The translations under genes were made by a program, and so were the position numbers. Below are positions 21,439 to 41,853 of a DNA stretch of 64,000 nucleotides, piece after piece (position 1 is the first letter of the stretch; every line of letters begins with the position of its first letter). The DNA is taken from NCBI GenBank assembly GCA_964615975.1, contig CAZTTH010000001.1, positions 6,559-70,558 of the forward strand. The letters are read 5' to 3'. Under the pieces are notes generated by a model. It ran no database searches, was not told the DNA's origin, and worked only from the letters and a program-made list of their open reading frames with translations. Origin of the DNA: an uncultured Lentisphaerales bacterium (GTDB taxonomy: Bacteria; Verrucomicrobiota; Lentisphaeria; JABSQK01; JAJFLO01).

Positions 21439-24036
21439 TTATTCCTTGGATACACTACTTCGCGTGGAGAATTGGTAATCATTATCAAAATAATCGATTT
21501 CTAACGCCATGTTTTCACTGATTTCGTTGCCTATCAGCATACGTGAAATTGGCGTTTCCAAACGGCGGGAAATCACACGTTTCAATGGCCTTGCTCCATA
21601 TATCGGATCGTATCCCTCATGGGCTAATTGTTTTTTGGCATTTTCCGCAACAATCAAATCTATCTGCAGTTTTTTCAGTTTATCTTTAAATAATTCTAAC
21701 TGAATGTCTACAATTTTTACCAGGTCACAGTCGGATAATGATTTAAACACGACGATATCATCTATTCGATTGAGAAATTCTGGACGGAATATCTGACGTA
21801 ATGCCATCATGACCTCATCTTTTTTCTTTGCTTCGGTGAGCGATTCATCTAAAAGAATCCCGCTACCAACATTTGAGGTCATGATAATAATGGTATTTTT
21901 GAAATCGACAATATGTCCCTGGGAATCTGTCAAACGTCCATCATCAAGTAATTGCAATAACACATTAAATACTTCTGGATTAGCCTTTTCTATTTCATCA
22001 AAAAGTATCACGGCAAATGGATGTCGCCGAATGGCTTCGGTCAATTGTCCGCCTTCATCATATCCCACGTAGCCAGGGGGAGCGCCAATTAACCTGGATA
22101 CACTGTGTTTTTCCATGTATTCAGACATGTCAATGCGCACCAATGCACGTTCATCGTCAAACATTAATTCAGCAAGGGCACGGGCTAATTCGGTCTTACC
22201 TACTCCTGTTGGCCCTAAAAATATAAAACTACCAATTGGTCGATTGGGGTCTTTCAGACCTGCACGAGAGCGGAGTATGGCATCGGCAACCGCATCAACC
22301 GCTTCATTTTGGGATATTACTCGTTGATGAAGCAGGATGCCAAGTTGCAACAAGCGTTCCCGTTCACTTTGTAATAATTTGGTTATCGGGATGTGCATCC
22401 AACGACTGATTATTTCAGCAATATCGTTCTCATCAACCTCGCGTTTTAACAGTCTCTTTTCACCGGAATCGGCGATTCGTTTTTCAGCGTCATTTACCTG
22501 GCGTTCCAAATTAGGAATAATCCCATAACGCAGTTCGGCGACTTTATTCAAATCATAATTTCGTTCTGATTCTATGAGATTACGTTTCGCCAATTCGAGA
22601 GATTCTCTTAGGGCTTGGATATCGCTTATCGAATTTTTTTCCGCATCCCATTTGGCCTGCATAACCTGTAAATTCTCGTTGAGATCATACAAATCTTCTT
22701 CCAGTTTTTCCCTGCGTAAGTTTGATTCGTTATCACTTTCTTTTCTTAGTCCGGTAATTTCAATTTCCATTTGCAGTTTGCGCCGCGCTAATTCATCAAT
22801 TTCTACAGGACGACTATCAATCTCGGTCCGTAATTTTGCGGCAGCTTCATCGATCAGATCTATGGCTTTGTCCGGCAGGAATCGTTCGGAAATATAGCGA
22901 TTGGATAAAATTGCGGCACTGACAAGAGCGGAATCACGGAGGGTAACCCCATGATGTACTTCATAACGTTCCCTAAGGCCGCGTAAAATTGAAATGGTAT
23001 CTTCCACACTTGGTTGATCGACTAAAATTGTCTGAAATCGACGTTCAAGCGCCTTGTCTTTTTCAATGTGTTTGCGATATTCATTCAGAGTGGTGGCGCC
23101 AATACAATGAAGTTCACCACGCGCCAGCATTGGCTTTAAAAGATTCCCAGCGTCCATTGCGCCTTCTGCAGCGCCGGCACCAACCACGGTGTGTAGTTCA
23201 TCTATAAAAAGAATTATATCACCTTTTGCTTCAATGACTTCCTTGAGTACTGCCTTTAAACGTTCTTCGAATTCACCCCGATATTTTGCCCCAGCAATCA
23301 ATGCCCCCATATCGAGGGCGATAATGCGACGCTGCTTTAAGCCATCCGGAACGTCCTGTTGTATAATCCTTAATGCCAATCCTTCGACAATTGCAGTTTT
23401 ACCGACACCGGGATCACCGATCAGGACGGGATTATTTTTGGTGCGGCGTGATAAGATTTGAATAACCCGGCGAATCTCATCGTCACGGCCTATCACTGGA
23501 TCGAGTTTATGCTGTTGTGCTGCCGCAGTTAAGTCCCGTCCATATTTTTCTAATGCCTGAAATGTTGCTTCTGGAGTTGGTGAGGTAACCCGTTGATTGC
23601 CGCGAACTTCTCTTAGACCACCAAGAAGTTTAGCCTCATTGATACCAAATTTACCTATAATTGAATCACACTCATGATCCGTTTTGATTAAAGCGAGGAG
23701 TAAATGTTCGACGCTGACATAATCATCCTTCAGTTTTTTAGCGATTGATTGTGCTTCATTTAATGCCTGACTGAATTCACGGGTGGCAGATGGTTGTCCT
23801 ACACCGGGACCCGTAACTTTTGGTATCTTCATCAAAGATCGATCAATTTCATGTTTGATATCGTTAATCGCGACACCCAATTTTTCGAATAAAGCGGGGG
23901 TGAGCCCATTTTGCTGATTAACCAATGTGCTAAACAGATGTATTGGATGTAAATTCTGATGTTTCAACTCCGTAGCAAGTTGCTGAGTCACGACGAGTGA
24001 TTCTTGGGATTTTTCAGTAAAATTATTGATATTCAT
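21439..24036 (-). CDS. clpB: ATP-dependent chaperone ClpB
   Basis: 865 aa with an N-domain, two AAA+ modules (GDPGVGKT… and …[11 protein letters not shown]…), a long middle coiled coil and a C-terminal …[25 protein letters not shown]…. Confidence 0.95.
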
Positions 24037-30112: not shown

Positions 30113-30370
30113 AAGTCTTGAAAAGGAGTATGGTGTGTTATATGAACAGTATCTGATAATATGATTTCAGATGAAGTTCATCAACTTGCAAGGTCATGCT
30201 GACAATTGGTATTTTGCAAATACTGTATATGGTTGGAATCAGTTAATGGTGTTATAAAATTTTATTATACTATGTCGTGTGCCGATGATAAAGGCTTAAT
30301 ATTATCTGAGGCTGAGTTAATTATTCAATTCATTGTCTGGGAATGATAATAGTCCTTGAAGAGGAAGTTT

Positions 30371-31636
30371 ATGATTCGTTTAATTGAAGCCTTAAATTTT
30401 CGCAATCTAAATTATATTCGCCAACCGGTTCATAACTTTCAAGTGTTGATTGGTACTAATGGTTCTGGCAAGTCGAATTTTCTTGACATACTTTCCTTTT
30501 TAGGACGATTTATATCCAAAGGAGCGAAAGTGGCCATCACCGAACGAAGTAATAATTTTCGTGATTTGACCTGGCGTCGAAATGCCAACCGTTTTGAATT
30601 GGCAATCGAAGCTGAAATCCCCCCAGAACATCGACGTCCCTTAGACTCCCCTGAATACGATATCATTCGTTATGAGTTCGCAATTGGTATCACCCCTGAA
30701 AACCAGGATCTGATTTCATTTGATGAACAGATTACTTTGATTCAACAAAGCGAAATGACGGAGAGTGCGGTCAGCTCTTTGGAGAAAATCCCAGATACAG
30801 TATTCGTTGCTGACTACCACCAAATGTATAAGCAACTAATAGCCTATGATGAAAAGGGGAATTTATTGTTGTACCCGGAAGAGTCATTTGAAAATCAGGG
30901 GTGCCTGACATCTGACAATTACCTTTTACCCAACCGTCTCGAACCCAACCTATCGGTTTTTTGCGCCATACAAGCTTTCGAGAATGAATTTCCAGCTGCC
31001 AATTGGCTGGTACGTTTTCTCACTCAAAGTTTGTTTCAAATTCGATTGGATAGCTCCACCATGCGTCAACTCAGTCGTTATGGTCAGGAGTTTCTATTTA
31101 CCGAATATGGCGCCAAGCTGCATTGGGTAATCGAACGAATTAAAAAGGAAACACCAGATCGATTTGTTGATTGGTTGACGCAAATAAAATCACTGATGCC
31201 AGACCTCGAAGATATTGTCATCCATGAACGTCCAGATGACCGAAAAAAAATTATTGCAATCCGTTATAATGATGGGTTTGAAATCCCATCGGGTTTAATG
31301 TCAGAAGGGCTCCTGCGCTTGCTGGCGTTGACCAGTCTGCCATATTTTCCTGATAAGGGTTATCTATGTATTATTGAGGAACCTGAGAATAATCTGCATC
31401 CATTAGCTTTGGAGATTGTTATCCGGAATTTACGATCGAATTTTTCTGGTCAGATCATAATGACTACTTATTCGCCATTTGCTTTGGGATTATGCCATGC
31501 GCATGAGGTGCTGATATTTTCTGCTGATTCCCAACATGGCGCCCAAATTACCAGTGGTTCACAACACCCTGGTATCTCATATAATTTGGCTGACAGTGGA
31601 TTAAAGACTTTATTTGAAATGGGGGAATTGAATTAG
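30371..31636 (+). CDS. orphan AAA_21/ABC-type ATPase (OLD/PtuA/AriA-like P-loop protein)
   Basis: ATG at 30371 is preceded by GAAGAGGAAG. Walker A is VLIGTNGSGKSNFLD. ABC-signature-like region plus Walker B/D-loop is LLRLLALTSL…YLCIIEEPENNLHPLALE. H-loop-like region is QIIMTTYSPFAL. There is no fused nuclease domain and no partner gene. Confidence 0.7.
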   Translation: MIRLIEALNFRNLNYIRQPVHNFQVLIGTNGSGKSNFLDILSFLGRFISKGAKVAITERSNNFRDLTWRRNANRFELAIEAEIPPEHRRPLDSPEYDIIRYEFAIGITPENQDLISFDEQITLIQQSEMTESAVSSLEKIPDTVFVADYHQMYKQLIAYDEKGNLLLYPEESFENQGCLTSDNYLLPNRLEPNLSVFCAIQAFENEFPAANWLVRFLTQSLFQIRLDSSTMRQLSRYGQEFLFTEYGAKLHWVIERIKKETPDRFVDWLTQIKSLMPDLEDIVIHERPDDRKKIIAIRYNDGFEIPSGLMSEGLLRLLALTSLPYFPDKGYLCIIEEPENNLHPLALEIVIRNLRSNFSGQIIMTTYSPFALGLCHAHEVLIFSADSQHGAQITSGSQHPGISYNLADSGLKTLFEMGELN

Positions 31637-31724: not shown

Positions 31725-32939
31725 TTAATTCGTTATCGTTGGCGTCAGAGTTGTGAGTGAACATTTCATAAGTTCAGGAATATCGAGTTTGGATTCTTCA
31801 TCAAGTACACGGCCAAGCAAGGCGCCGGTAGCAGGCGATCGTGGTTCAAACACTACGCAACAATCTGGACTATATTGTTCCGATATTTCCAAAGTGCCAA
31901 TCCTGCGTCCGATCGACACGGTCTCATACTTATCCATGCTGATTAATGGCCGAAGGATCAAATAATCTGTAGCGCGATTGATTGCATCCATGTTTTTGAG
32001 CGTTTGACTAGCTACTTGTCCGACGACATCACCCGTTACCAATGCTGTTAATTTCAAAACCCGCGCCACGTGTGCGGCTATGCGTATCATCAATCGCCGG
32101 TAAAGAATGGTGCGATATTTATCCAGGCAAATATCCCGGATGATTTTTTGCGCTGCACTGATATTGCAAGCGTACAAGATTCCTGCGGTCTGATAACGAT
32201 TTAAGACTTTGACCAGTTGCCCCACCTTATCCAATGTTTCTGCTGGAGTGTAGGGATAACTGTGAAAAGTGAGAAAATGCAATCGGGTTCCACGTTTCAT
32301 TGCAAGATAACTGGCCACCGGTGAATCGATCCCTCCGGATAATAATGACAATGCGCTTCCATTCGTTCCACTGGGAAGCCCACCTGGACCGGGAAACTCA
32401 TTAAAATAAATGAAGCTCCAATGTTCTCTAATCTCGAGACCAATATCGATCTTTGCCTCCTTAAGATTCAACTGCAAGCGCGGATAACCACGTAAGAATA
32501 AGTCCGAAAAATGGATTTCAATTTCCTGTGAAGTCATGGGAAATGGTTTCCATCCCCGTCGGGCACGCATACGATAAGTGATTGGCGTGTCATCTCCAAT
32601 CTGACCAGCACTGAGTTGATAAATTTCGGGGAAATGACTCTTGATGGCTGCCACAATGGTGGAAAAATCCGTTGCTACCTTGATCCCTGGGGAATAGGAT
32701 GATAGGCCAAAAACCAGAGGCATTCGACTATAAATGCCTGCGAGTTGTTCAGTAGTAAAAGGTTGAAAGCGGGATTGGTGCAATAATATCCGGCCGCGTT
32801 CACGCAGGAAAAGCGGCTCCATAATGTCCTGTATGGTCCGTTTGATCCCAGTCAAAAACAGCCGTTCGAACATACCGCGATTATGTCCCTTGGTGGCTAT
32901 TTCATTGTACCGACACATGATTGTGTTATACAGCGGCAT
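31725..32939 (-). CDS. thiI: tRNA 4-thiouridine synthase / thiamine biosynthesis protein ThiI
   Basis: Start trimmed to an internal Met (MPLYNTIMCRYNEIATKGHNR…), leaving THUMP and PP-loop ATPase regions (SGGIDSPVA). The 24 upstream codons in the track ORF are translation of the tRNA-Gln repeat. Confidence 0.85.
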   Translation of the reverse strand: MPLYNTIMCRYNEIATKGHNRGMFERLFLTGIKRTIQDIMEPLFLRERGRILLHQSRFQPFTTEQLAGIYSRMPLVFGLSSYSPGIKVATDFSTIVAAIKSHFPEIYQLSAGQIGDDTPITYRMRARRGWKPFPMTSQEIEIHFSDLFLRGYPRLQLNLKEAKIDIGLEIREHWSFIYFNEFPGPGGLPSGTNGSALSLLSGGIDSPVASYLAMKRGTRLHFLTFHSYPYTPAETLDKVGQLVKVLNRYQTAGILYACNISAAQKIIRDICLDKYRTILYRRLMIRIAAHVARVLKLTALVTGDVVGQVASQTLKNMDAINRATDYLILRPLISMDKYETVSIGRRIGTLEISEQYSPDCCVVFEPRSPATGALLGRVLDEESKLDIPELMKCSLTTLTPTITN

Positions 32940-32979
32940 GAGAGGGTAGATAAGTAAGAAATTAGCAACTGAATAAAAT

Positions 32980-33031
32980 TGGTTACCCCGCCTGGACTCG
33001 AACCAGGACAAACAGGATCAAAACCTGTTGT
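32980..33031. repeat. 52-bp direct repeat (att site), partial 3' copy of tRNA-Gln
   Basis: TGGTTACCCCGCCTGGACTCGAACCAGGACAAACAGGATCAAAACCTGTTGT is identical to 41779-41830. It corresponds to the 3' 52 nt of the tRNA-Gln gene. Confidence 0.9.
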
Positions 33032-33147
33032 TATAGGTATAAAAATTAAATAGTGTGGTTGTTATGTGGTGATAATTCATGTATAATAGTGTCATATAGT
33101 TTCTATTGGTGTTAGTTAAATCATTAATCAATTAAAGGGATAATCGT

Positions 33148-34467
33148 ATGGCACGTCATAACAAGGGCACACTCTACAAACGCGGTAAAATTTACTGGCT
33201 TGAATATTACGTTAATAATGAGCGAATTCGAGAAAGTCTTAAGACCAGCAATCTCAAAGAGGCACAATCCAAGCGGGATATAATAATCAACGACCTGAAA
33301 GCCCGCAAGAATGAAGACAAACATATCGCTATCCTCCATCGAGTCAAAGATGCAGAACATGCCCGCATAGAAGCCGAACAGAAACTTCAGGATTTCCGCG
33401 AAGAAAACCGAACTAAATTGAAAATAACCGATGTTTGGGAGCATTACCTTGCCAGTAAAGAACGTCCTCAATCCGGTCAAGGAACATTAAAGGATTACGA
33501 TTATTGCTGGCGGAAATTTGTTATGTGGTGGTCGAATAATGATGGCGATCAACGCCCGTATGTAGAGGACATCAAAAAAGAAGACGCCTCGAAATTCGCC
33601 AGATTTCTTGATACAGAACAATTAAGTCCGAACCGTTACAATAAAATTATTATTTCCTGCAAGCTGGTATTAAATGTTATTGCCCCTTTATGCAATGATA
33701 TGGCCAATCCTTTTGCCGGGATTCGGAATAAACGGCTTGACCCTCAAGGTCATCGAAAATTGACCGTTGAAGAACTCCGAATAGTGTGTGGTAAAGCAAC
33801 CGGTGAAATGCGCGTTTTATTTGCGATTGGTTTGTTCACTGCTCTGAGAATGGGAGATTGCTGTACTTTGCAATGGAACGAAATCAGTTTAGAACTTGAT
33901 CGCATCGTTAGAAAACCCAATAAAGTCAAAAGTCGTAAGAAAAAGAATACCCTTATTATTCCCCTGCACCCCGATCTCCGGAAAATCCTTGTTGAGATCC
34001 CCCAGGATACGCGGCAAGATTATGTTTTACCTGAATATGCCAGTCTCTATCTTAGAGATCGTGGCGCGGTCAGCAAAAAAATACAGCAACACTTTACTGA
34101 TTGTGGAATAGATACCAAGGGGGGAAGGACTGGAAAAAATGCACCGCCCGAAGTTGGATTCCATTCGCTCAGGCATACCTTTGTCAGCATGGCTGCTCAA
34201 GCGGGTGTTCCATTACCGATCATTCAGGAATTGTGCGGCCATGAATCTTCTGCCATTCAACAGGTATATCTTCATATGGGAGAAGATGCTACCCGGCAAG
34301 CTATCCTAGCCTTGCCGAATATCGGCAATCCCGTTAACGACAACCAGCTTCTCCCGATGCCATCCAGTCAATCCCGAAATCAAGAAGCCATCGCCTTACT
34401 GAATTCCATGAATGCCAAAAACTGGGATGAAATCAAAGATAAAGTAATTAGAATACTATCTTCTTGA
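33148..34467 (+). CDS. int: tyrosine-type site-specific integrase
   Basis: 439 aa; catalytic residues in …TALRMGDCCTLQW…, HSLRHTFVSMAAQAG and …VYLHM (R…HxxR…Y). Sits adjacent to the attL repeat. Confidence 0.9.
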   Translation: MARHNKGTLYKRGKIYWLEYYVNNERIRESLKTSNLKEAQSKRDIIINDLKARKNEDKHIAILHRVKDAEHARIEAEQKLQDFREENRTKLKITDVWEHYLASKERPQSGQGTLKDYDYCWRKFVMWWSNNDGDQRPYVEDIKKEDASKFARFLDTEQLSPNRYNKIIISCKLVLNVIAPLCNDMANPFAGIRNKRLDPQGHRKLTVEELRIVCGKATGEMRVLFAIGLFTALRMGDCCTLQWNEISLELDRIVRKPNKVKSRKKKNTLIIPLHPDLRKILVEIPQDTRQDYVLPEYASLYLRDRGAVSKKIQQHFTDCGIDTKGGRTGKNAPPEVGFHSLRHTFVSMAAQAGVPLPIIQELCGHESSAIQQVYLHMGEDATRQAILALPNIGNPVNDNQLLPMPSSQSRNQEAIALLNSMNAKNWDEIKDKVIRILSS

Positions 34468-34479
34468 CTCAATTTAGAC

Positions 34480-35970
34480 TTAATCATTATTGGAGTTAAA
34501 CCATCGAATTTCTTTGTCAATAGCAGCTATAATTGAATTTGGAAATATGTAAATAAGGGGAAAATATACACCATGTGAACGGTAATGTAACGCGGTTACA
34601 ATAAAACCGATTTTACTCATAGCCATATTATCATATTTGAGCTGATTAAATATTTGGCAAACTGCTGCTTTTGAACATCCTAAAATTTTCCCTATATCAG
34701 TTAAAAAAGGCTTCAGATCAACCATTCCCTTCTTTGCATCATGTCTTTTTATTCGCCTTAGTGATTCCAATTCATTTAATGTCAAACCGATATCACTCGA
34801 AACAGTTTTTGCGATTGTGTAAGATTCTAAATCTTGGTCTATTGGGTACCAGCACATCCCACATTCCGGGCACTTAACTTCAATGTTAAAATTCGAATTA
34901 TCATCATTTGACAACTCGTCATCTTTCCATTTTTCGTCAGTATCAACTACATAAGATGTTCGATTTTTATCAATCCATTTCCCCTTTATTTGGCATGTCT
35001 GACAAACTAGTTTGCTTGGAGCTAAGATTTGATTAAGAAACCCTTTAACCAAAACATAAGTTTCATGGTTATTGAGAGTTGGATTTTTTCTCTTTTGATA
35101 TTCAAAAAGCTTTCCATAAATTAAATCAAAATAAATCTTTTCATCTTGAGGATTTCTTTTTTGACTAAAAATCGAATCTAAGTGAATCAGCAAACCTTGG
35201 ATGTATCGAATTTGCCCATTTGTGAATGAAGTCATCAAATTCATAAATTCATTACTGGGCTTTGGTAAACACGGATAAAGTTTTTTTGATAACTCACATA
35301 CCCTGGCATCCTTGAAAGTTGTTTTACAAGAATATTTAGGTAGCCTTATATTTTTTGTTAACTCCCGTGGCATAAAAAGTAATCGCCACAAGATAATTAT
35401 CTCTCGTGTTTTTGACGATTTCACAATGATATTATTTGCTTTGGGCTTCCAGTTCCATTTTATAACTGCATCTAATGAATAAAATTTTTTCTTATCTCTC
35501 CTCTCTATTGAATTCCCTAATTTCCCCTTATTAGCTGCTCTTTTAATTGTTGGAATTGATTTGCCAGTTAGTAAGTTTATATCATCATATCCCAGTCCCT
35601 TATCGTACCCCCATGAAGTTTGAACCCTCGGATTAATTAAGGTTTTTTTATATATCTCCCTCAATCGTTGTAATTCACATTCAAGAATCTTGTTTTGGTC
35701 AGTTAAAGTTAAATCAATTCCATGTAACCTGATCTTTATGTTTGCAGATGGAGGAAAAACTTCCCATTCTTTTGGAAAGTAAACTTTGAATGGAATTTTG
35801 AATTCAAATTCATAGTGGTCAATGATTGAAGCCAGAATATTTGTCAATAACTCATATATAAAGTATATAGCGTTACTTTCTTCTAATTCAGTAATTCTTC
35901 CCTTCTGCAAGTCGTTATCCAAAACGCTCGATCTTAACGGTGTGTTCATAATCTTCTTCATAGGTCGCAT
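34480..35970 (-). CDS. hypothetical 496-aa island protein (Zn-ribbon CxxC…CxxC, C-terminal HTH-like segment)
   Basis: Long AT-rich ORF convergent with int and divergent from the XRE gene. Contains CQTCQ…CPECGMC and a C-terminal DIGKILGCSKAAVCQIFNQL helix-turn-helix-like stretch. No family recognised. Confidence 0.55.
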   Translation of the reverse strand: MRPMKKIMNTPLRSSVLDNDLQKGRITELEESNAIYFIYELLTNILASIIDHYEFEFKIPFKVYFPKEWEVFPPSANIKIRLHGIDLTLTDQNKILECELQRLREIYKKTLINPRVQTSWGYDKGLGYDDINLLTGKSIPTIKRAANKGKLGNSIERRDKKKFYSLDAVIKWNWKPKANNIIVKSSKTREIIILWRLLFMPRELTKNIRLPKYSCKTTFKDARVCELSKKLYPCLPKPSNEFMNLMTSFTNGQIRYIQGLLIHLDSIFSQKRNPQDEKIYFDLIYGKLFEYQKRKNPTLNNHETYVLVKGFLNQILAPSKLVCQTCQIKGKWIDKNRTSYVVDTDEKWKDDELSNDDNSNFNIEVKCPECGMCWYPIDQDLESYTIAKTVSSDIGLTLNELESLRRIKRHDAKKGMVDLKPFLTDIGKILGCSKAAVCQIFNQLKYDNMAMSKIGFIVTALHYRSHGVYFPLIYIFPNSIIAAIDKEIRWFNSNND

Positions 35971-36055
35971 CAAAAGATCCTAATAGCTTAACCTTTGTAA
36001 GGAGTTAACGCCAACATACGTGGCAATAACAACCAAAAATATAAAGGCAAGTATT

Positions 36056-36283
36056 ATGAATGAACAAACCCCATTAAGGAAACATCGGCTATCAAAAAAA
36101 TGGACGATGTCAAAGCTGGCAAAAGAAGCCAGAGTCTCACTATCAACACTATCAAGATATGAAAACGACTGGGACACACCAACATATCAAACAGCTCAAC
36201 GCCTGGCTATCGCCTTGGAAGTGGAAGTCAGTCAAATCTATCCCAATAAGACTCTTAAAGAATCGGGGAGGGCTCTGATATGA
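36056..36283 (+). CDS. XRE-family helix-turn-helix transcriptional regulator
   Basis: MNEQTPLRKHRLSKKWTMSKLAKEARVSLSTLSRYENDWDTPTYQTAQRLAIALEV is a canonical HTH_XRE. The ATG at 36056 is preferred over the track start. Confidence 0.8.
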   Translation: MNEQTPLRKHRLSKKWTMSKLAKEARVSLSTLSRYENDWDTPTYQTAQRLAIALEVEVSQIYPNKTLKESGRALI

Positions 36284-36630
36284 AATTCAAGAACAAACCT
36301 CCTGAAAGTACACTCCTGGCAATTGTCCATCTGATTCAACCATTTGTCAGAGAAGAAATAACCCCCCAACTTCTGATCGAGACCTTGAAGCAATTCATTC
36401 CCAATCATGAAGCAAACAACCAAACTTCATCAATCCCCATTGCAAAATCGATTTCGATAATCGAAGCGGCCAACCGTCTCAATGTGAGTAAATCAACGAT
36501 CTGGAGATTGATCCGGGTGGGGATACTGAAACGATCAAAACTGGGCTCAAGAACCGCTCGCATTTCAGAACGTGATCTTGCAGCATTGATAGAGAAGGGA
36601 GGTTACGACTATGAGAAAAAACAATCGTAA
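36280..36630 (+). CDS. AlpA/excisionase-family HTH protein (HTH_17-like)
   Basis: C-terminal SIIEAANRLNVSKSTIWRLIRVGILKRSKLGSRTARISERDLAALIEKG matches MerR-type excisionase/AlpA HTH. Overlaps the XRE stop. Confidence 0.65.
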   Translation: MKFKNKPPESTLLAIVHLIQPFVREEITPQLLIETLKQFIPNHEANNQTSSIPIAKSISIIEAANRLNVSKSTIWRLIRVGILKRSKLGSRTARISERDLAALIEKGGYDYEKKQS

Positions 36631-36841
36631 TCACTCTCAACAAGCATACTTTGTCGGCCATTATACTGGAAAACAGATTCCCAAATGTACTTGTTGTGGG
36701 ATCCTCATTACGAACTGGAACCTTGGCGGGAGCAATCGAGAAAATGGAAGTACCATTACTGGTAATGTTCCTTGCAATCGTTGTGTCGATCCTGAATGCC
36801 CACCGGATTGTTTAGTTGTAAAAGAGGGAGTCAGCTTATGA
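36611..36841 (+). CDS. small Cys-rich (zinc-ribbon-like) protein
   Basis: 76 aa with CTCCG…CNRC…CPPDC. The ATG start overlaps the upstream gene, and its stop overlaps the primase ATG (ATGA), suggesting a coupled operon. A small ORF, so uncertain. Confidence 0.4.
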   Translation: MRKNNRNHSQQAYFVGHYTGKQIPKCTCCGILITNWNLGGSNRENGSTITGNVPCNRCVDPECPPDCLVVKEGVSL

Positions 36842-39390
36842 ACACCCCCCTTATCCAATTCATGATCGACGACTTGGCAAAATCCGGAATCTCATACAAA
36901 TGGGCTGTAAAACACGGATTAAGACCAGTGAATGCCAATGAATTGGCTTCCATGCTTGGATTTTCCCCCAAGAATATCAACGGTAACCAGTGTGAAGGTT
37001 ATGTAATCCCGTTCTTTGATCCCATCACGAAAAAACCCATGTTTTGCCCAGATGGTCACCGTGATTATGTTCGCGTCAAGCTCCGTGTTCCGGCCATCGA
37101 CAAAGATGGCGACCCGGCAAAATACCTTTCACCAAAAGATGCTGGCCAACATGCTTTGATTCTGCCTGAAGTCCATGCTTATTTACAAGATTCACAAAAG
37201 CCGGTAATAATAACTGAAGGTGAGAAGAAAGCCTTGGCTGCAACCCTGGCTGAATTGCCTACTATCGCATTGACCGGCAATCATGGCTGGAATATCGGCA
37301 AGACCAATGAACTATTGCCGGAATTATCCCGCTATATCGATCATAAACTGTGGATTGCCGTTTATGATTCCGATGCCAAAATCAATCCTGATTTTCACCG
37401 TTCCTTGGCACGAATGGCATTCGCGCTGTCAAAATTTGATTGCCAGCTCTATGCCGTCTATCTCCCGTCCATGGGCAACGGCAAAGTGGGGATCGATGAT
37501 TACTTGGTCGAACATGGCAAGACCATTGACGACTTAACGCGATACATAAATGAAACCAAAACCCTGGTCTCCACTGAAGATATTCCAATATCAACAAAAC
37601 CGTCGAATCACAAATCCAAGCGTTCACCCAATCAAGCGGAATTATTGGTACGTTTGACTAAAGAAATCACCTTATTTCACGGCCTTGAAGATTGCACCAA
37701 AACATATGCCAGCATTTCAATCGACAATCATTTTGAAACTTGGCCATTAAACAATCAATGTTTTTATAATTGGTTATCAAAACAGTATTATAAGACATAT
37801 AAAAAAATCCCCGGATCACAAGCAATTAACGATGCAGTAAAAACCGTTCAGGGCATTGCTCAATTCGACAAAGAAGCAATTCATGTGGGAATAAGATTCA
37901 CTTTCTATCAAGAAAGTATTTGGCTTGATCTGTGCGATCCAGAATGGCGAATCGTTAAAATTTCATCCAATGACTGGAAAATCGTTTCCGCCAAAGATGC
38001 CCCGGTAAAATTTATTCGTCGTCGTGGAATGCTACCATTGCCACAGCCTCAATCGGGGGGAAACTTCGATGATCTCAGACAACTATTGCATATCGAAGAC
38101 GATCAAAATTGGTATTTGATACTTGGTTGGCTGACCGGAGCATTACATCCCACCGGTGGATATCCCATGTTGGTAGTTAATGGCGAACAGGGGAGCGGTA
38201 AAAGCACACTGTGCAAATTTTTGCGATACTTAATTGATGCCAATACTGCCGCCCTGCGTCGCCCCCCCAAAGAACCAAAAGATTTATTCATTGCCGTTAA
38301 AAACAGCTACTTGATTGCATACGATAATCTTTCCAGTGTTCCTGATTGGTTATCGGATTCTTTGTGTACAATATCGACAGGTGGTGGATTTGCGACGCGG
38401 GAATTATATAGCGATGATGAAGAAATAATAATAAACGCTGTACGCCCGATAATCATTAATGGCATTCCCAACCTGGGGACTCGATCCGATTTGGTGGATC
38501 GTTCAGTTTGTCTACAAATGAAAGAAATTCATAACCAACAACGTAAAAGCGACCTTTACCTTGAAAATGAATTCTCTCGTTTAGCCCCATCTCTAATTGG
38601 AAAACTATGCGAAACCGCATCACATGGACTTCGTAAATATCGGCAAATTGAATTATCTGAAACGCCACGCATGGCGGATTATGCTCAATGGATTGTCGCT
38701 TGTGCCCCCGCCTTGGAATTTCATGAAAATACTTTACTGAATGCCTATCTATCTAATCGTCAGGAAATCAATCTTGATACCCTTGAACATTCGCCGCTTG
38801 CCAAAATAATTGAACGCTATTTGGAATCCGATCATCGATGGCAGGGAACATGCGGAGAACTCCTTAAGGCATTTCAGAAACTTTGTAATGATGATACTTC
38901 AGTATCTTCATCAGATTTACCCAAAACATCAAGAAAACTATCCAATGATCTAAAGCGCATTGCACCCAATTTGCGTATGAACGGGATCGAAGTTCAATTC
39001 GGTAACAAAACGAATAAGGGCAGGACAATCACTTTAGAAAAGGTTGGGAAAACACCGTCACATCCGTCACCATCGTCACAAAATAATCATAAAATATTGA
39101 ATACGAATAACATAGATTCTCATACAACCAGTGATCATTGTGTGACGTTTACCCAGAAGAGTGACGATACCGATTCATTATCAAATAACCCGGTGTCGAT
39201 TGAAGAAAGAAATATGATCATCAGTGATGGTGGAAAAGATTCGAAAGTCACCATCGCAACCAGTTGCAAACAAACTTCTTCTGAATCAACAGATCATTCA
39301 AGTGACGATAGTGACGATTGCCACCCCATATCTTCTAAATCGATATCTGAGAATGAATATGATCCCAATGTTACAACCTGGTTGTATTGA
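36838..39390 (+). CDS. replication primase-helicase (TOPRIM/DUF3854-like domain + P-loop NTPase) with Ser/Asp-rich C-terminal tail
   Basis: TOPRIM-like PVIITEGEKKALA…IAVYDSDAKIN…GIDDYL. Walker A VVNGEQGSGKST and Walker B LIAYDNL, typical of P4/D5-type primase C-terminal helicases. The last ~130 aa are low-complexity S/D/T-rich. Confidence 0.8.
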   Translation: MNTPLIQFMIDDLAKSGISYKWAVKHGLRPVNANELASMLGFSPKNINGNQCEGYVIPFFDPITKKPMFCPDGHRDYVRVKLRVPAIDKDGDPAKYLSPKDAGQHALILPEVHAYLQDSQKPVIITEGEKKALAATLAELPTIALTGNHGWNIGKTNELLPELSRYIDHKLWIAVYDSDAKINPDFHRSLARMAFALSKFDCQLYAVYLPSMGNGKVGIDDYLVEHGKTIDDLTRYINETKTLVSTEDIPISTKPSNHKSKRSPNQAELLVRLTKEITLFHGLEDCTKTYASISIDNHFETWPLNNQCFYNWLSKQYYKTYKKIPGSQAINDAVKTVQGIAQFDKEAIHVGIRFTFYQESIWLDLCDPEWRIVKISSNDWKIVSAKDAPVKFIRRRGMLPLPQPQSGGNFDDLRQLLHIEDDQNWYLILGWLTGALHPTGGYPMLVVNGEQGSGKSTLCKFLRYLIDANTAALRRPPKEPKDLFIAVKNSYLIAYDNLSSVPDWLSDSLCTISTGGGFATRELYSDDEEIIINAVRPIIINGIPNLGTRSDLVDRSVCLQMKEIHNQQRKSDLYLENEFSRLAPSLIGKLCETASHGLRKYRQIELSETPRMADYAQWIVACAPALEFHENTLLNAYLSNRQEINLDTLEHSPLAKIIERYLESDHRWQGTCGELLKAFQKLCNDDTSVSSSDLPKTSRKLSNDLKRIAPNLRMNGIEVQFGNKTNKGRTITLEKVGKTPSHPSPSSQNNHKILNTNNIDSHTTSDHCVTFTQKSDDTDSLSNNPVSIEERNMIISDGGKDSKVTIATSCKQTSSESTDHSSDDSDDCHPISSKSISENEYDPNVTTWLY

Positions 39391-39406
39391 ATGGAGTGAA
39401 CGATTG

Positions 39407-39697
39407 ATGAACCCGTCATTATCTCACCGTGCTTTAATTATTCAGAAAGCGTTGCCATTAGATAAACAACCCGAATTCAGTAAACGCTGGCAATTCTTTC
39501 ATGATGACTTACATAAAGCTGTAAATTTCCTGAATAGAATTGAACGAACCATCACACAATTAACTACTTCAACTTACGAAGCCCCATGCAACCCCGATCC
39601 TTCATGCGTACCCTTGAACCTACCCCGGAAACCCAATGAATCGAGTGTCCAATTGCTGGATCGGTGCTACAAGGCTGACGGTTATATCAAAGCCTAA
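39407..39697 (+). CDS. hypothetical small island protein
   Basis: ATG at 39407 just after the primase stop (MNPSLSHRALIIQKALPLDKQPEF…). The longer track ORF (39224..) overlaps primase in another frame and is trimmed. Confidence 0.35.
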   Translation: MNPSLSHRALIIQKALPLDKQPEFSKRWQFFHDDLHKAVNFLNRIERTITQLTTSTYEAPCNPDPSCVPLNLPRKPNESSVQLLDRCYKADGYIKA

Positions 39698-39727
39698 ACA
39701 TAATTCAAACTACAAGTGGAGAAGACC

Positions 39728-39901
39728 ATGACACGACAAGAAGTTATCACCATTTTAGAGCGGATGATTCGCGACGAAAATACCATTGATTATGATCGGA
39801 TACAGGCGATTGCGGAGTTGGCAAAAATCCAAGGCTTTTATGCCCCCAATCAATTCATAACCAAACTACAGCCATGCCTTGAATTAATGAACCTCAACTG
39901 A
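39728..39901 (+). CDS. hypothetical small protein
   Basis: 57 aa from an ATG preceded by GGAGAAG. No motif. Confidence 0.3.
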   Translation: MTRQEVITILERMIRDENTIDYDRIQAIAELAKIQGFYAPNQFITKLQPCLELMNLN

Positions 39902-40384
39902 CAACTTCATGGGTTCCTTAATGCCTTTGACCGTTGTCATGTGTTCATATACCGATATCGCCCGGGCAGCCGCAATCCTTCGAGAGACCTCCCGCGTACT
40001 GATTGTTCCGGGTGGGGTGTTCAAATTCAGGTTTGCATTGTAGTTTTCAGAACGTATGGGCGGGAACTCCCCGGCCAATTTACAATCGATTTCAATTGCC
40101 CTCAACCGATCCGCCACATTCAGGCTGTCATTAAACATCAGTTGACTTAATAATTCCCGCTTTTCCTGCAATGTCGCAACTTTGCTTTTGGCAACTTCCT
40201 TCTGTAGCTCTTTTATTCTGTCCTGAATACCAACATTTTTCAACAAAAGCCGGGAAGCTGCCGATGCCGCAATCTTGGGATTTTTCACATTCCACCCGCT
40301 TTTCCGATACGCTTCAGCCTTGGAATACCCCTCCGCGATCAATTGCGCGAACTTCTCATATCGTGGATGATTGATCACAGACAT
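39884..40384 (-). CDS. terS: phage terminase small subunit (Terminase_2/P27 family) homologue
   Basis: 166 aa; PRYEKFAQLIAEGYSKAEAYRKSGWNVKNPKIAASAASRLLLKNVGIQDRIKEL matches the Terminase_2 N-terminal HTH consensus. Confidence 0.7.
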   Translation of the reverse strand: MSVINHPRYEKFAQLIAEGYSKAEAYRKSGWNVKNPKIAASAASRLLLKNVGIQDRIKELQKEVAKSKVATLQEKRELLSQLMFNDSLNVADRLRAIEIDCKLAGEFPPIRSENYNANLNLNTPPGTISTREVSRRIAAARAISVYEHMTTVKGIKEPMKLSVEVH

Positions 40385-40457: not shown

Positions 40458-41240
40458 CTAATTTTCCTTCTTCCATTTCCATGGAGGTATCGGGCTGGTG
40501 TCTGCCCATAACCCGATCTTTTTTTCACGCGCATCTTGTTCAGTGGAATTAAAAACCCCTGAACACGGTTTATCATAATTATAACACCATGCTAACCCTT
40601 CTTTTAGCATTTGATAATTAACGGTCGTTTCTAAAAGTTTGTTTTCATCATCAATCAATTCAGTTCCATCATCAATCAATTTTTTTTTATCCAGTAATAA
40701 CACAATCCCAATATAGAAATCATGTCTTTCTTTTTTTTCACATATTACCATAAGTGGAACACTTCCTTGTGTTAGCTCGGAAGACACTAATTTAGTCAAA
40801 TAAAATTTTGCTTTATATCCATAAGGTTGATCTAATTCTGGTGCATCAATTCCCTTAAGTCTAATTACGTACAATCCATGATCGTCATCCGATCTGATTT
40901 TTAATGTATCTCCGTCAATTATGGATTCTGCCATTCCAGAAAACGACATTGTTTCCAATTCGTTTGATTTCACAATCGTTTCTTGTCCAGGAAGTTCTGG
41001 TTTTGCTTTTTTATCATCCATCAAACCATCAACCTGTTTAAATTTATTATCAGACCAAGACCACTCATAGGTTTTGAATGCACCAAATTTTGTGTCAAGG
41101 ATTACTATTACCGATTGATTTGCTCTTGCTGTGTGTACTTGATACCGTCCAATGTCCACATTTTGTTTATGACAATACCAGTATAGCCACATCGAAAAAG
41201 CAAAGAAGAGATAAAGTATAGCTATTTTTATATTGCTCAC
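40458..41240 (-). CDS. membrane-anchored thermonuclease (SNase-like) domain protein
   Basis: 260 aa with an N-terminal TM segment and a C-terminal SNase core (DGDTLKI…IRLKGIDAPELDQPYGYKAKFYL…LKEGLAW…AREKKIGLW). GTG start. AT-rich gene. Confidence 0.8.
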   Translation of the reverse strand: MSNIKIAILYLFFAFSMWLYWYCHKQNVDIGRYQVHTARANQSVIVILDTKFGAFKTYEWSWSDNKFKQVDGLMDDKKAKPELPGQETIVKSNELETMSFSGMAESIIDGDTLKIRSDDDHGLYVIRLKGIDAPELDQPYGYKAKFYLTKLVSSELTQGSVPLMVICEKKERHDFYIGIVLLLDKKKLIDDGTELIDDENKLLETTVNYQMLKEGLAWCYNYDKPCSGVFNSTEQDAREKKIGLWADTSPIPPWKWKKEN

Positions 41241-41778
41241 TTTATCGATATATAATTGTGTTTATGAGTCATTGGGTTGGTTATATCATTAAACAATAAG
41301 TGCGATAGCAATGAATTGTTTGAGGGATACTCATCAATTCTTTATGATTTTTCCTGTGACGATTATAAATTAAATTCGTTATATTCTATGTTCCTTACCA
41401 TTTAATGGTTGTGAATTTCTCATTATCGTTTGTAGTGATAACAAATCACAGACGGTCATTCATCAAGATTTTGATTAAAAATAATCAGAAATTGCCAATC
41501 TGGCAACTCATGATAAAATTTCTAAACAACCACTGTACCACCAAAATAATTGTTATGGATGAGTGGCATATTTTTGTCAGACTCTTTAACACCTTCCGGA
41601 AACATCCCCAAAAATATTTTGAACCTACCCCCACAGGTCGTGATCGATAATGCCCCCGCCCCCCCTCCATATTAAAACGACCAGCCTAAAGCAGACTGTG
41701 GTTGTTATGTGGTTGTTATTCGGGGGCAATGTGGTGGTTTCATAAAGTGTCAGATAGGCTTTATTAGCCTCAAATGAA

Positions 41779-41853
41779 TGGTTACCCCGCCTGGACTCGA
41801 ACCAGGACAAACAGGATCAAAACCTGTTGTGCTACCGATTACACCACGGGGTA
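41779..41853 (-). tRNA. tRNA-Gln (anticodon TTG), intact; 3' 52 nt form the right att repeat
   Basis: Minus-strand sequence TACCCCGTGGTGTAATCGGTAGCACAACAGGTTTTGATCCTGTTTGTCCTGGTTCGAGTCCAGGCGGGGTAACCA. Acceptor TACCCCG/CGGGGTA. Anticodon stem ACAGG/CCTGT with loop TTTTGAT. Confidence 0.85.

Follow-up and report, generated by a model that had tools for sequence, protein, structure and literature searches.

ORF496 is an open reading frame (ORF) in an integrated island of an uncultured Lentisphaerales bacterium. It was found in a stretch of 64,000 nucleotides of contig CAZTTH010000001.1, which is referred to below as the window. To judge from its sequence, the encoded protein is best described as a member of a rare multi-domain family that is built on a Cox-type unit of recombination directionality factors (RDFs) and is located in the switch position of an island resembling phage-inducible chromosomal islands (PICIs). 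We predict that ORF496 regulates the island switch, most likely as its maintenance repressor, a proposal for and against which the evidence is evenly balanced.

Genomic position of ORF496

ORF496 converges with an integrase gene and diverges from a gene for a small helix-turn-helix (HTH) protein of the XRE type:

34480-35970, minus strand: ORF496, uninterrupted, 496 aa from the ATG at 35970
33148-34467, plus strand: int, tyrosine integrase (Pfam Phage_integrase, E = 3.8e-17; phrog_1, E = 4e-48)
36056-36283, plus strand: XRE/Cro-type small HTH gene (Pfam HTH_3, E = 8e-12; PHROG transcriptional repressor and regulator families)
35971-36055, no strand: switch spacer, the divergent intergenic region from ORF496 to the XRE gene

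The stop codons of ORF496 and int are 12 nt apart (34468-34479). An earlier note on this DNA, here called the original prediction, had recognized the convergence but gave the distance as 13 bp. Its estimate of about 85 bp between the divergent genes was exact for an XRE gene starting with the ATG at 36056; the spacer shrinks to 49 bp if the alternative in-frame GTG at 36020 is used. The XRE gene is the first gene of a rightward operon. ORF496 is predicted to be transcribed leftward, alone, from the region of about 85 bp that also serves the rightward XRE/HTH_17/primase operon.

As originally noted, ORF496 is AT-rich, with a GC content of 32.6% compared with 40.7% in the remaining island. At this composition, the chance that 496 codons stay open is about 2e-19. 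The sequence AGGA, a plausible ribosome-binding site, is located 7 nt before the ATG; a TTG one codon further upstream would give a protein of 497 aa. The AT-rich composition, the orphan status of the protein in a database of 5.8 billion clusters and the fact that its expression is predicted from sequence alone might point to a spurious or decaying ORF without function. Against this stand the length of the frame, the ribosome-binding site and the existence of full-length homologues with conserved motifs, invariant cysteines and kept synteny (see below), and we consider such an origin extremely improbable. ORF496 is a genuine gene, conserved in a family, since the length of the frame is improbable and the homologues have discrete motifs in common with it.

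A rare protein family

The full ORF496 protein had no usable match in Pfam, NCBIfam, PHROGs or PADLOC, and with phmmer the single protein matched nothing among PDB sequences at E <= 10. The statement of the original prediction that no catalytic family is recognizable is therefore correct for the single protein, which matches no catalytic or other named family, and in none of these searches was whole-protein homology to a housekeeping enzyme observed. A word-indexed search of the 5.8 billion clusters recovered nothing but ORF496, whether it was started from the protein or, afterwards, from the family profile. Using the single ORF496 sequence in an exhaustive HMMER pass over 1.84 billion representatives, we detected two relatives only:

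P0003: 555 aa, E = 7e-7
P0004: 502 aa, E = 1.6e-4

ORF496 itself is designated P0001 in this family. It shares 27-31% identity with each relative over 170-258 aligned residues, and the identity between P0003 and P0004 is 28% over 277 residues. The DNA of independent copies of the P0004 island is 100% identical from copy to copy.

Scans with a family-alignment pattern and with tblastn gave no relatives in genome representatives, IMG/VR viral contigs and JGI metagenomes, the last of which were scanned twice, the second time with the family alignment reordered. Likewise, tblastn against phage and plasmid collections gave no family match. The flanks of related primase and integrase loci have the HTH_17-primase module in common, and a family member was present in none of them. 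Searches of profile libraries with the N-terminal segment of P0001 and with the middle and C-terminal segments of all three members yielded nothing, and no enzymatic domain was detected in any of the three proteins. In the original prediction, ORF496 had been regarded as the best candidate in the window for an undescribed function; with three lineages among 1.8 billion representatives, the family as a whole is essentially undescribed. As judged from these searches, the family is real but extremely rare, with three lineages in about 15 billion proteins, and it is unnamed.

The central Cox/excisionase-like domain

In the alignment of the three proteins (A1), a conserved core extends over approximately residues 93-375 of ORF496, while the N- and C-terminal ~120 residues are variable and align unconvincingly; the BLASTP alignment of P0001 with P0003 covers residues 124-374. 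Invariant are Y128, G136, S138, T141, K143, R144, G149 and K150, a second block consisting of R189-E190 and I193-L194-W195-R196 (RE..ILWR motif) and, further on, Q258, L261, I262 and four cysteines.

When PDB sequences were searched with the whole-family profile, the best match was Cox of phage P2 (4LHF) with E = 0.014. With a core-only profile (hmmsearch against 177,635 PDB sequences), Cox was again at the top with E = 0.0013, the next match having a value of 0.6. By hhalign, the core was aligned with P2 Cox at 92.6% probability (E = 4.6e-7) over 71 columns, comprising residues 11-86 of the 91 residues of Cox, so that nearly the whole protein (PF10743, 4LHF) with its winged helix and C-terminal helix is covered. 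Cox residues with mutagenesis data (PMC3936717) were mapped onto the family alignment, and seven of them coincide with invariant positions (roles as given in PMC3936717):

Cox Y14, Y128 in ORF496: hydrophobic, packing partner of I32
Cox G22, G136 in ORF496: site of the cox3 mutation
Cox R29, K143 in ORF496: DNA binding
Cox R30, R144 in ORF496: DNA binding
Cox K36, K150 in ORF496: packing
Cox K75, R189 in ORF496: DNA binding
Cox W81, W195 in ORF496: needed for activity, ascribed to oligomerization

In addition, L37 of Cox is kept in the family except for an isoleucine in one member. Residues T25, D33, R51, R73, R78 and W84 are not conserved, and T25, R51 and R78 are among those that contact DNA. 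Conservation of the DNA-binding, packing and oligomerization residues is hence partial (PMC3936717). The core appears to hold a complete Cox-type unit, in which the recognition helix and the wing are followed by the C-terminal helix that contains the tryptophan required for P2 Cox activity.

The AlphaFold2 (AF2) model obtained from the single ORF496 sequence was useless, with a predicted local distance difference test score (pLDDT) of 33. When the three-sequence alignment was supplied, the mean pLDDT was 38 and residues 121-175, with values of 57-82, were the only interpretable part. They are modelled in the order strand-helix-helix-strand-strand-helix. The strand-helix-helix-wing topology of this domain can be superimposed on Xis-type structures, and its best structural matches are Pukovnik Xis (4J2N), the GIsul2 excisionase (8C3T), RdfS (8DGL) and BldC. 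In Foldseek against the PDB nothing scored below E = 0.5; the only tight local matches were of the same fold class and none was significant. Structure prediction combined with Foldseek, a check suggested in the original prediction, has therefore provided an excisionase-class match for residues ~121-175, whereas the rest of the protein could not be interpreted and the Foldseek matches lacked significance. In the model, the domain shares its secondary-structure order with the HTH_17/AlpA-type excisionases named above, but these are single-domain proteins of 50-120 aa and their sequence similarity to ORF496 is negligible (HTH_17, E = 0.13 in one family member). A kinship of the core with the HTH_17 protein encoded by the island itself was ruled out (hhalign, 0.8%).

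The central domain is most readily taken as a remote, Cox-like winged helix of the excisionase class that lies outside the curated Cox family. Given this predicted Cox/Xis-type domain, ORF496 is very probably a DNA-binding protein.

Zinc ribbon and C-terminal region

Along the protein, the following regions were distinguished (all on the minus strand):

35371-35601, residues ~124-200: Cox/excisionase-type winged helix and the next helix with RE..ILWR
35005-35370, residues ~201-322: conserved, predicted helical region with the motif F/Y-[IL]-Q-x-x-L-I; no family match, AF2 helices of low confidence
34861-35004, residues 323-370: predicted four-cysteine zinc ribbon (CQTC...CPEC), the two knuckles being separated by an acidic insert
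34639-34698, residues 425-444: the stretch DIGKILGCSKAAVCQIFNQL, formerly read as an HTH of the sigma-70 region 4 or LuxR type

The cysteine pairs C323/C326 and C367/C370 are invariant in all three members, and the stretch between the knuckles is acidic in each of them. Weak Pfam matches of the Zn_ribbon_4, HypA, Fin and rubredoxin type were obtained in the homologues, and phrog_1305, annotated as 'DNA binding protein', matches the zinc-ribbon region of P0003. The invariant cysteines, which include those of both distant homologues, together with these weak matches support the CxxC...CxxC zinc ribbon that had been proposed for ORF496. The same does not hold for the C-terminal HTH of the original prediction. 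The C-terminal segments of the three members had no Pfam match even at E <= 10, hhalign against a sigma-70 factor gave a probability of 0.07%, and residues 425-444 are barely conserved in the family, I429 being the sole invariant residue. An HTH of this type is not supported by these results and was rejected.

A conserved gene order in three islands

The two relatives are encoded in islands of their own, the P0004 island (environments sampled under JGI 3300044991, 3300044951 and 3300044984) being represented by loci L002-L005 and the P0003 island by L001:

L002, 10001-11509: P0004 family gene
L001, 298-1965: P0003 family gene

In the P0004 island, the family gene is convergent with a tyrosine integrase gene, the two ORFs overlapping by 68 nt. 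A divergent spacer of 81 bp separates it from an HTH_3 gene, which overlaps a downstream HTH_17-like gene and heads an operon with a DnaG-type primase and a Terminase_4 small terminase. A sigma-70 gene is located at the far end of this island (L002). In the P0003 island, the divergent spacer of about 101 bp leads to a gene for a 65-aa Cro/C1-type HTH protein, where the contig ends, and the family gene faces a leftward gene block with two HTH_17 genes and an integrase gene at its end.

By tblastn, only three genes are common to all islands, namely the integrase gene (26-28% identity), the family gene and, with weak similarity, the XRE gene, while the replication modules differ. These three genes have diverged to a similar degree. 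The conserved unit consists of an integrase gene pointing at the family gene, which in turn is divergent from a small XRE gene. The replication operon starts with the XRE gene in two of the three islands, those of the window and L002. In canonical S. aureus pathogenicity islands (SaPIs) and PICIs, int and its neighbour stl are co-directional (PMC6092414), whereas int is convergent with the family gene in the window, L002 and L001. From the stl/str topology assumed in the original prediction, the divergent pairing with a small XRE gene thus recurs with both homologues, but the co-directional int does not.

In all three islands the GC content of the family gene is 6-8 points below that of the rest (0.326 vs 0.407 in the window, 0.384 vs 0.458 in L002 and 0.321 vs 0.383 in L001), which could reflect either an amino-acid bias or a different origin. 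This marked deficit might indicate that ORF496 is an accessory cargo gene, for example for an anti-phage or helper-interference protein that uses its winged helix for autoregulation or target recognition. The large size of the protein and the variable termini of its members would fit such a function, as would its slot between int and the regulator, a common site of PICI accessory genes (PMC6092414, PMC10085698), and the defence cargo (e.g. type I restriction-modification (R-M), SIR2) of islands with related primases. However, no domain of the defence type, such as an effector, NTPase or nuclease domain, was detected, and the sole PADLOC match is a 14-bit HTH; there is no positive evidence for the fused sensor-effector or anti-phage module that had been considered in the original prediction. 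Furthermore, in both the window and L002 the replication operon begins with a gene immediately divergent from the family gene, and there is no other candidate repressor on the int-proximal side. The contexts of the family gene are uniform rather than varied: it is accompanied by the same lineages of integrase and XRE genes, which have diverged to a matching degree, and it is absent from the phage, plasmid, viral-contig and genome collections searched, in which mobile defence cassettes are usually spread. A cargo function is therefore doubtful.

Boxes in the att arms and in the switch region

The island is bracketed by a perfect 52-nt direct repeat (D1; 32980-33031 and 41779-41830). Short boxes are located just inside both copies, and a near-copy is found in the switch spacer:

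32980-33031, no strand: attL, a 52-nt copy of the 3' part of tRNA-Gln (repeat D1)
41779-41853, minus strand: tRNA-Gln(ttg) (ARAGORN, Rfam tRNA), whose 3' 52 nt (41779-41830) form attR
33054-33075, plus strand: two tandem arm boxes (TGTGGTTGTTA, TGTGGTGATAA) starting at 33054 and 33065, 11-bp spacing, just inside attL (repeat family D2)
41697-41740, plus strand: three arm boxes (TGTGGTTGTTA twice, TGTGGTGGTTT) starting at 41697, 41708 and 41730, 11- and 22-bp spacing, just inside attR (D2, D10)
36026-36037, minus strand: switch copy of the arm box TGTGGTTGTTA, 10 of 11 positions identical, inside the ORF496-XRE spacer

The 9-mer ATAACAACC, the reverse complement of the box core, occurs four times in the 64 kb compared with 0.4 expected copies. 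All four are within the island, three at the att arms and one in the spacer (36026-36034). With a weight matrix trained on the arm boxes alone, the spacer copy scored 12.9 bits, a value reached by a handful of sites outside the island. In two reports on Cox and on Apl of phage 186 (PMC3936717; PMC7498355), these proteins are described as binding both att and switch regions; because of this known dual binding, the box common to arms and switch is a lead. Across the spacers of the three islands, ATAACAA is the sole common 7-mer (p~0.04).

The P0004 island also has repeated end motifs (AAATTATATACA; CTTTTTGAGGCTAAA), which are present at both ends (L002, 1-145 and 12836-13132). A tRNA-like stretch beside int in L002, ending in GGTTCGAATCCATCCCCCACCACCA, received no ARAGORN or Rfam call and was rejected, as was a tRNA-like fragment beside the integrase gene of L001, for which Rfam and ARAGORN gave no support.

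ORF496 might mainly be a recombination directionality or excision factor of the Cox/Apl kind, which together with the convergently encoded Int would bind near att and drive or block excision. Its binding to the switch would then belong to the lytic side, and the XRE protein would be the true repressor. This explanation overlaps in part with that of a switch regulator. It is consistent with the tandem boxes at 11-bp spacing inside both att ends and the near-copy in the switch, all the more as direct repeats at a distance of one helical turn are typical of RDF sites (PMC7498355). It also agrees with a homology that is specific to Cox, which is both excisionase and switch repressor, with structural matches that are excisionases and RDFs, and with the linkage to a co-diverging integrase in all three islands. 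On the other hand, the rightward operon already contains an excisionase candidate of the HTH_17/AlpA type, and L001 has two beside int. The boxes have the same orientation on both arms, a feature more typical of arm sites for an integrase. With RDFs being small proteins, some 400 additional residues of ORF496 are left without explanation, and ORF496 is transcribed apart from, and opposite to, the operon expected to be switched on at excision. We regard a dedicated RDF as unlikely.

ORF496 as candidate repressor of the island switch

For the preferred role as maintenance repressor, we propose that ORF496 would oligomerize on sites in the shared spacer of about 85 bp and would thereby hold the XRE/HTH_17/primase operon for replication and excision silent as long as the island is quiescent. 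It would be a positional analogue of Stl/Rpr or of phage cI/C repressors. Most likely it keeps the rightward operon off, since it is the solitary int-proximal partner of the divergent pair. Transcription of ORF496 would run head-on into int; as the stop codons are separated by 12 nt and no terminator was detected between them, it probably reads into int in antisense. Speculatively, an inducing signal such as a helper-phage protein may be perceived by the variable termini and the acidic insert of the zinc ribbon. The near-copy of the arm box in the switch is in line with this role, as it recalls the dual sites of Cox and Apl.

Like Stl of SaPIs and Rpr of PICIs, ORF496 is divergent from a regulator gene that heads an excision and replication operon, and it is part of a small island with int, primase and terS. 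It also resembles these repressors in being a multi-domain protein that combines a DNA-binding module with variable regions and lacks a peptidase domain of the SOS type. The Stl-like repressor position of the original prediction is thus borne out by the int-proximal side of the divergent pair, and a predicted DNA-binding domain is present, but a sequence kinship with Stl/Rpr is not supported, since ORF496 has no match to PHROG transcription-regulation families and no Pfam match of the HTH_3 type. In Stl, the DNA-binding domain is an N-terminal HTH of the XRE type, whereas that of ORF496 appears to be a centrally located winged helix of the excisionase type. Altogether, the earlier interpretation was partly supported: it was right in spirit in proposing a novel candidate regulator in the repressor position, partly right on the topology and wrong on the DNA-binding motif.

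The resemblance to P2 concerns the gene arrangement as well as the domain. Similar to cox, ORF496 adjoins int and forms a divergent regulatory pair with the gene of a small HTH protein, and the motif common to the att arms and the switch region is a likeness to P2 Cox and 186 Apl. In P2, the order is int and C, followed by the divergent cox; here, the same two kinds of partner are located beside int with their positions swapped, so that ORF496 holds the position of C, and the partner of the Cox type is enlarged to 500 aa. Cox itself is a small (~90 aa), single-domain protein encoded by the first gene of the early lytic operon, whereas ORF496 is multi-domain and transcribed solitarily leftward. 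It has 496 instead of 91 residues, and the Cox-like unit at residues ~124-200 is located among unrelated regions including the zinc ribbon. W84, T25, R51 and R78 of Cox are missing from the conserved positions, and the family remains below the PF10743 model.

Combining these likenesses, a single 'giant Cox' could unite helper sensing, derepression of the operon and control of Int-mediated excision in one polypeptide by means of the box shared by att arms and switch, the acidic insert of the zinc ribbon being autoinhibitory or mimicking DNA. Such a protein would represent a novel kind of master regulator of satellites. We consider this extended model improbable.

Several points weigh against ORF496 as a Cox-type maintenance repressor. 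The similarity to Cox is remote and was obtained with a family profile built on three sequences; PF10743 (Phage_Cox) was absent from every family member even at E <= 10, while P2 Cox itself scores 161 bits on this model. For four fifths of ORF496 the fold could not be assigned (mean pLDDT 38), and the functional reading as a whole is drawn from three sequences. The link between arm boxes and switch has a p value of about 0.01 for the 85-bp region, calculated post hoc; the pattern was not clearly reproduced in L002, and L001 is represented without its ends. The arm boxes could be bound by the Cox-like protein or by the HTH_17 candidates, but also by the arm-binding domain of Int. Neither a sigma-70 consensus promoter in the ORF496-XRE spacer nor convincing inverted or direct repeats in an operator search of the three switch regions were found, and k-mers common to the three spacers are weakly above chance. 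P2 Cox and 186 Apl favour excision and belong to the lytic side of their switches, contrary to what is expected of a maintenance repressor. The low GC content of the family gene could indicate a mobile cassette. Finally, the position alone does not make ORF496 a repressor, because accessory genes of PICIs commonly sit between int and the regulatory module (PMC6092414, PMC10085698).

The island and its surroundings

The island unit of 8,799 bp (~8.8 kb) is integrated in tRNA-Gln and thus combines a specific att site with a small size; the chromosome around it is that of a free-living bacterium. In addition to int, ORF496 and the XRE gene, the island contains the following genes:

36280-36630, plus strand: HTH_17 gene (AlpA/excisionase type; Pfam HTH_17, E = 8.6e-10; phrog_66 excisionase/regulator)
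36796-39390, plus strand: primase-helicase gene (DUF3854 Toprim-type N-terminus, Pfam E = 1e-13; P-loop; weak AAA matches)
39224-39901, plus strand: two small ORFs
39884-40384, minus strand: terS, small terminase homologue (Pfam Terminase_2, E = 5.6e-6; phrog_51, E = 8e-15)
40458-41240, minus strand: gene for an SNase-domain, thermonuclease-like protein (Pfam SNase, E = 4.4e-12; NCBIfam and PHROG nuclease matches)

The start of the HTH_17 gene and the stop of the XRE gene overlap by 4 nt (ATGA). A cysteine-rich ORF of 76 aa (36611-36841, plus strand; CTCC...CNRC...ECPPDC) bridges the HTH_17 and primase genes in another frame. The gene-caller version of the primase-helicase (P0005) has 850 aa; its relatives, with 37-39% identity, are encoded in integrative elements of metagenome-assembled genomes (MAGs). 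In the closest of these (L006-L008; Acidobacteriota MAGs and metagenome contigs), the HTH_17-primase module is kept, and the elements carry type I R-M, Mrr, SIR2/STALD and SLFN-like helicase genes as defence cargo. A 61-aa ORF (39716-39901, plus strand) has a weak match to a small-terminase PHROG (E = 0.004) and overlaps convergently with the 3' end of the Terminase_2 gene. The SNase protein, whose gene adjoins attR, has 260 aa with a C-terminal staphylococcal-nuclease domain and an N-terminus of about 100 aa without a family match; it may serve the island in an accessory role, in interference or in defence. No family match was obtained for the 157-aa and 76-aa small ORFs of the island.

The core set of PICIs comprises an integrase, a regulator (alpA/merR/stl), a primase-replicase, a capsid-morphogenesis gene and a small terminase, other phage structural or lysis genes being absent by definition, and their median size is 9.5 kb (PMC10085698). 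Four of these five components, the integrase, the AlpA-type regulator, the primase/replicase and the small terminase, are present in the window island, which with about 8.8 kb and exact att repeats in a tRNA gene also matches PICIs in size and integration. No capsid-morphogenesis gene was recognized, and among the island ORFs scanned with Pfam and PHROG there were no capsid, tail or lysis homologues, two small ORFs being without any match. The terS and SNase genes are located on the strand opposite the replication operon and point towards it, unlike in canonical PICIs. On the basis of its genes, the best reading of the island is a PICI-like satellite or integrative island.

Outside the island, the ORF called for thiI (31725-33011, minus strand) begins with a TTG inside the attL repeat (32980-33031). 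Since the ThiI_fer domain match begins at residue 30, the true start of thiI is probably further downstream and the repeat would lie just upstream of the gene. Beyond thiI, an AAA_21/AAA_15 ATPase gene (30356-31636, plus strand) has strong PADLOC matches to defence ATPases of the HEC-01A, AriA, mad3, AbiLi, OLD and PtuA type with E values down to 3e-37; no partner gene was identified. Elsewhere in the window, ClpB (21439-24036) has at most 61-63% identity to proteins of 185,579 GTDB species representatives, the best matches belonging to Acidobacteriota, Nitrospirota, Desulfobacterota and others.

Implications

How phage satellites outside the Firmicutes are silenced and induced is largely an open question, for which ORF496 provides a concrete candidate: a putative large regulator built on a predicted Cox/excisionase-type domain, whose gene is found in three very distant islands next to a Cro-like gene and together with an integrase gene that has diverged in parallel. 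If ORF496 indeed acts as a switch protein, winged helices of the RDF type could serve as the module that binds DNA in large repressors, which possibly also sense signals, and the coupling of the transcriptional switch to recombination in P2 and 186 would extend to PICI-like elements.

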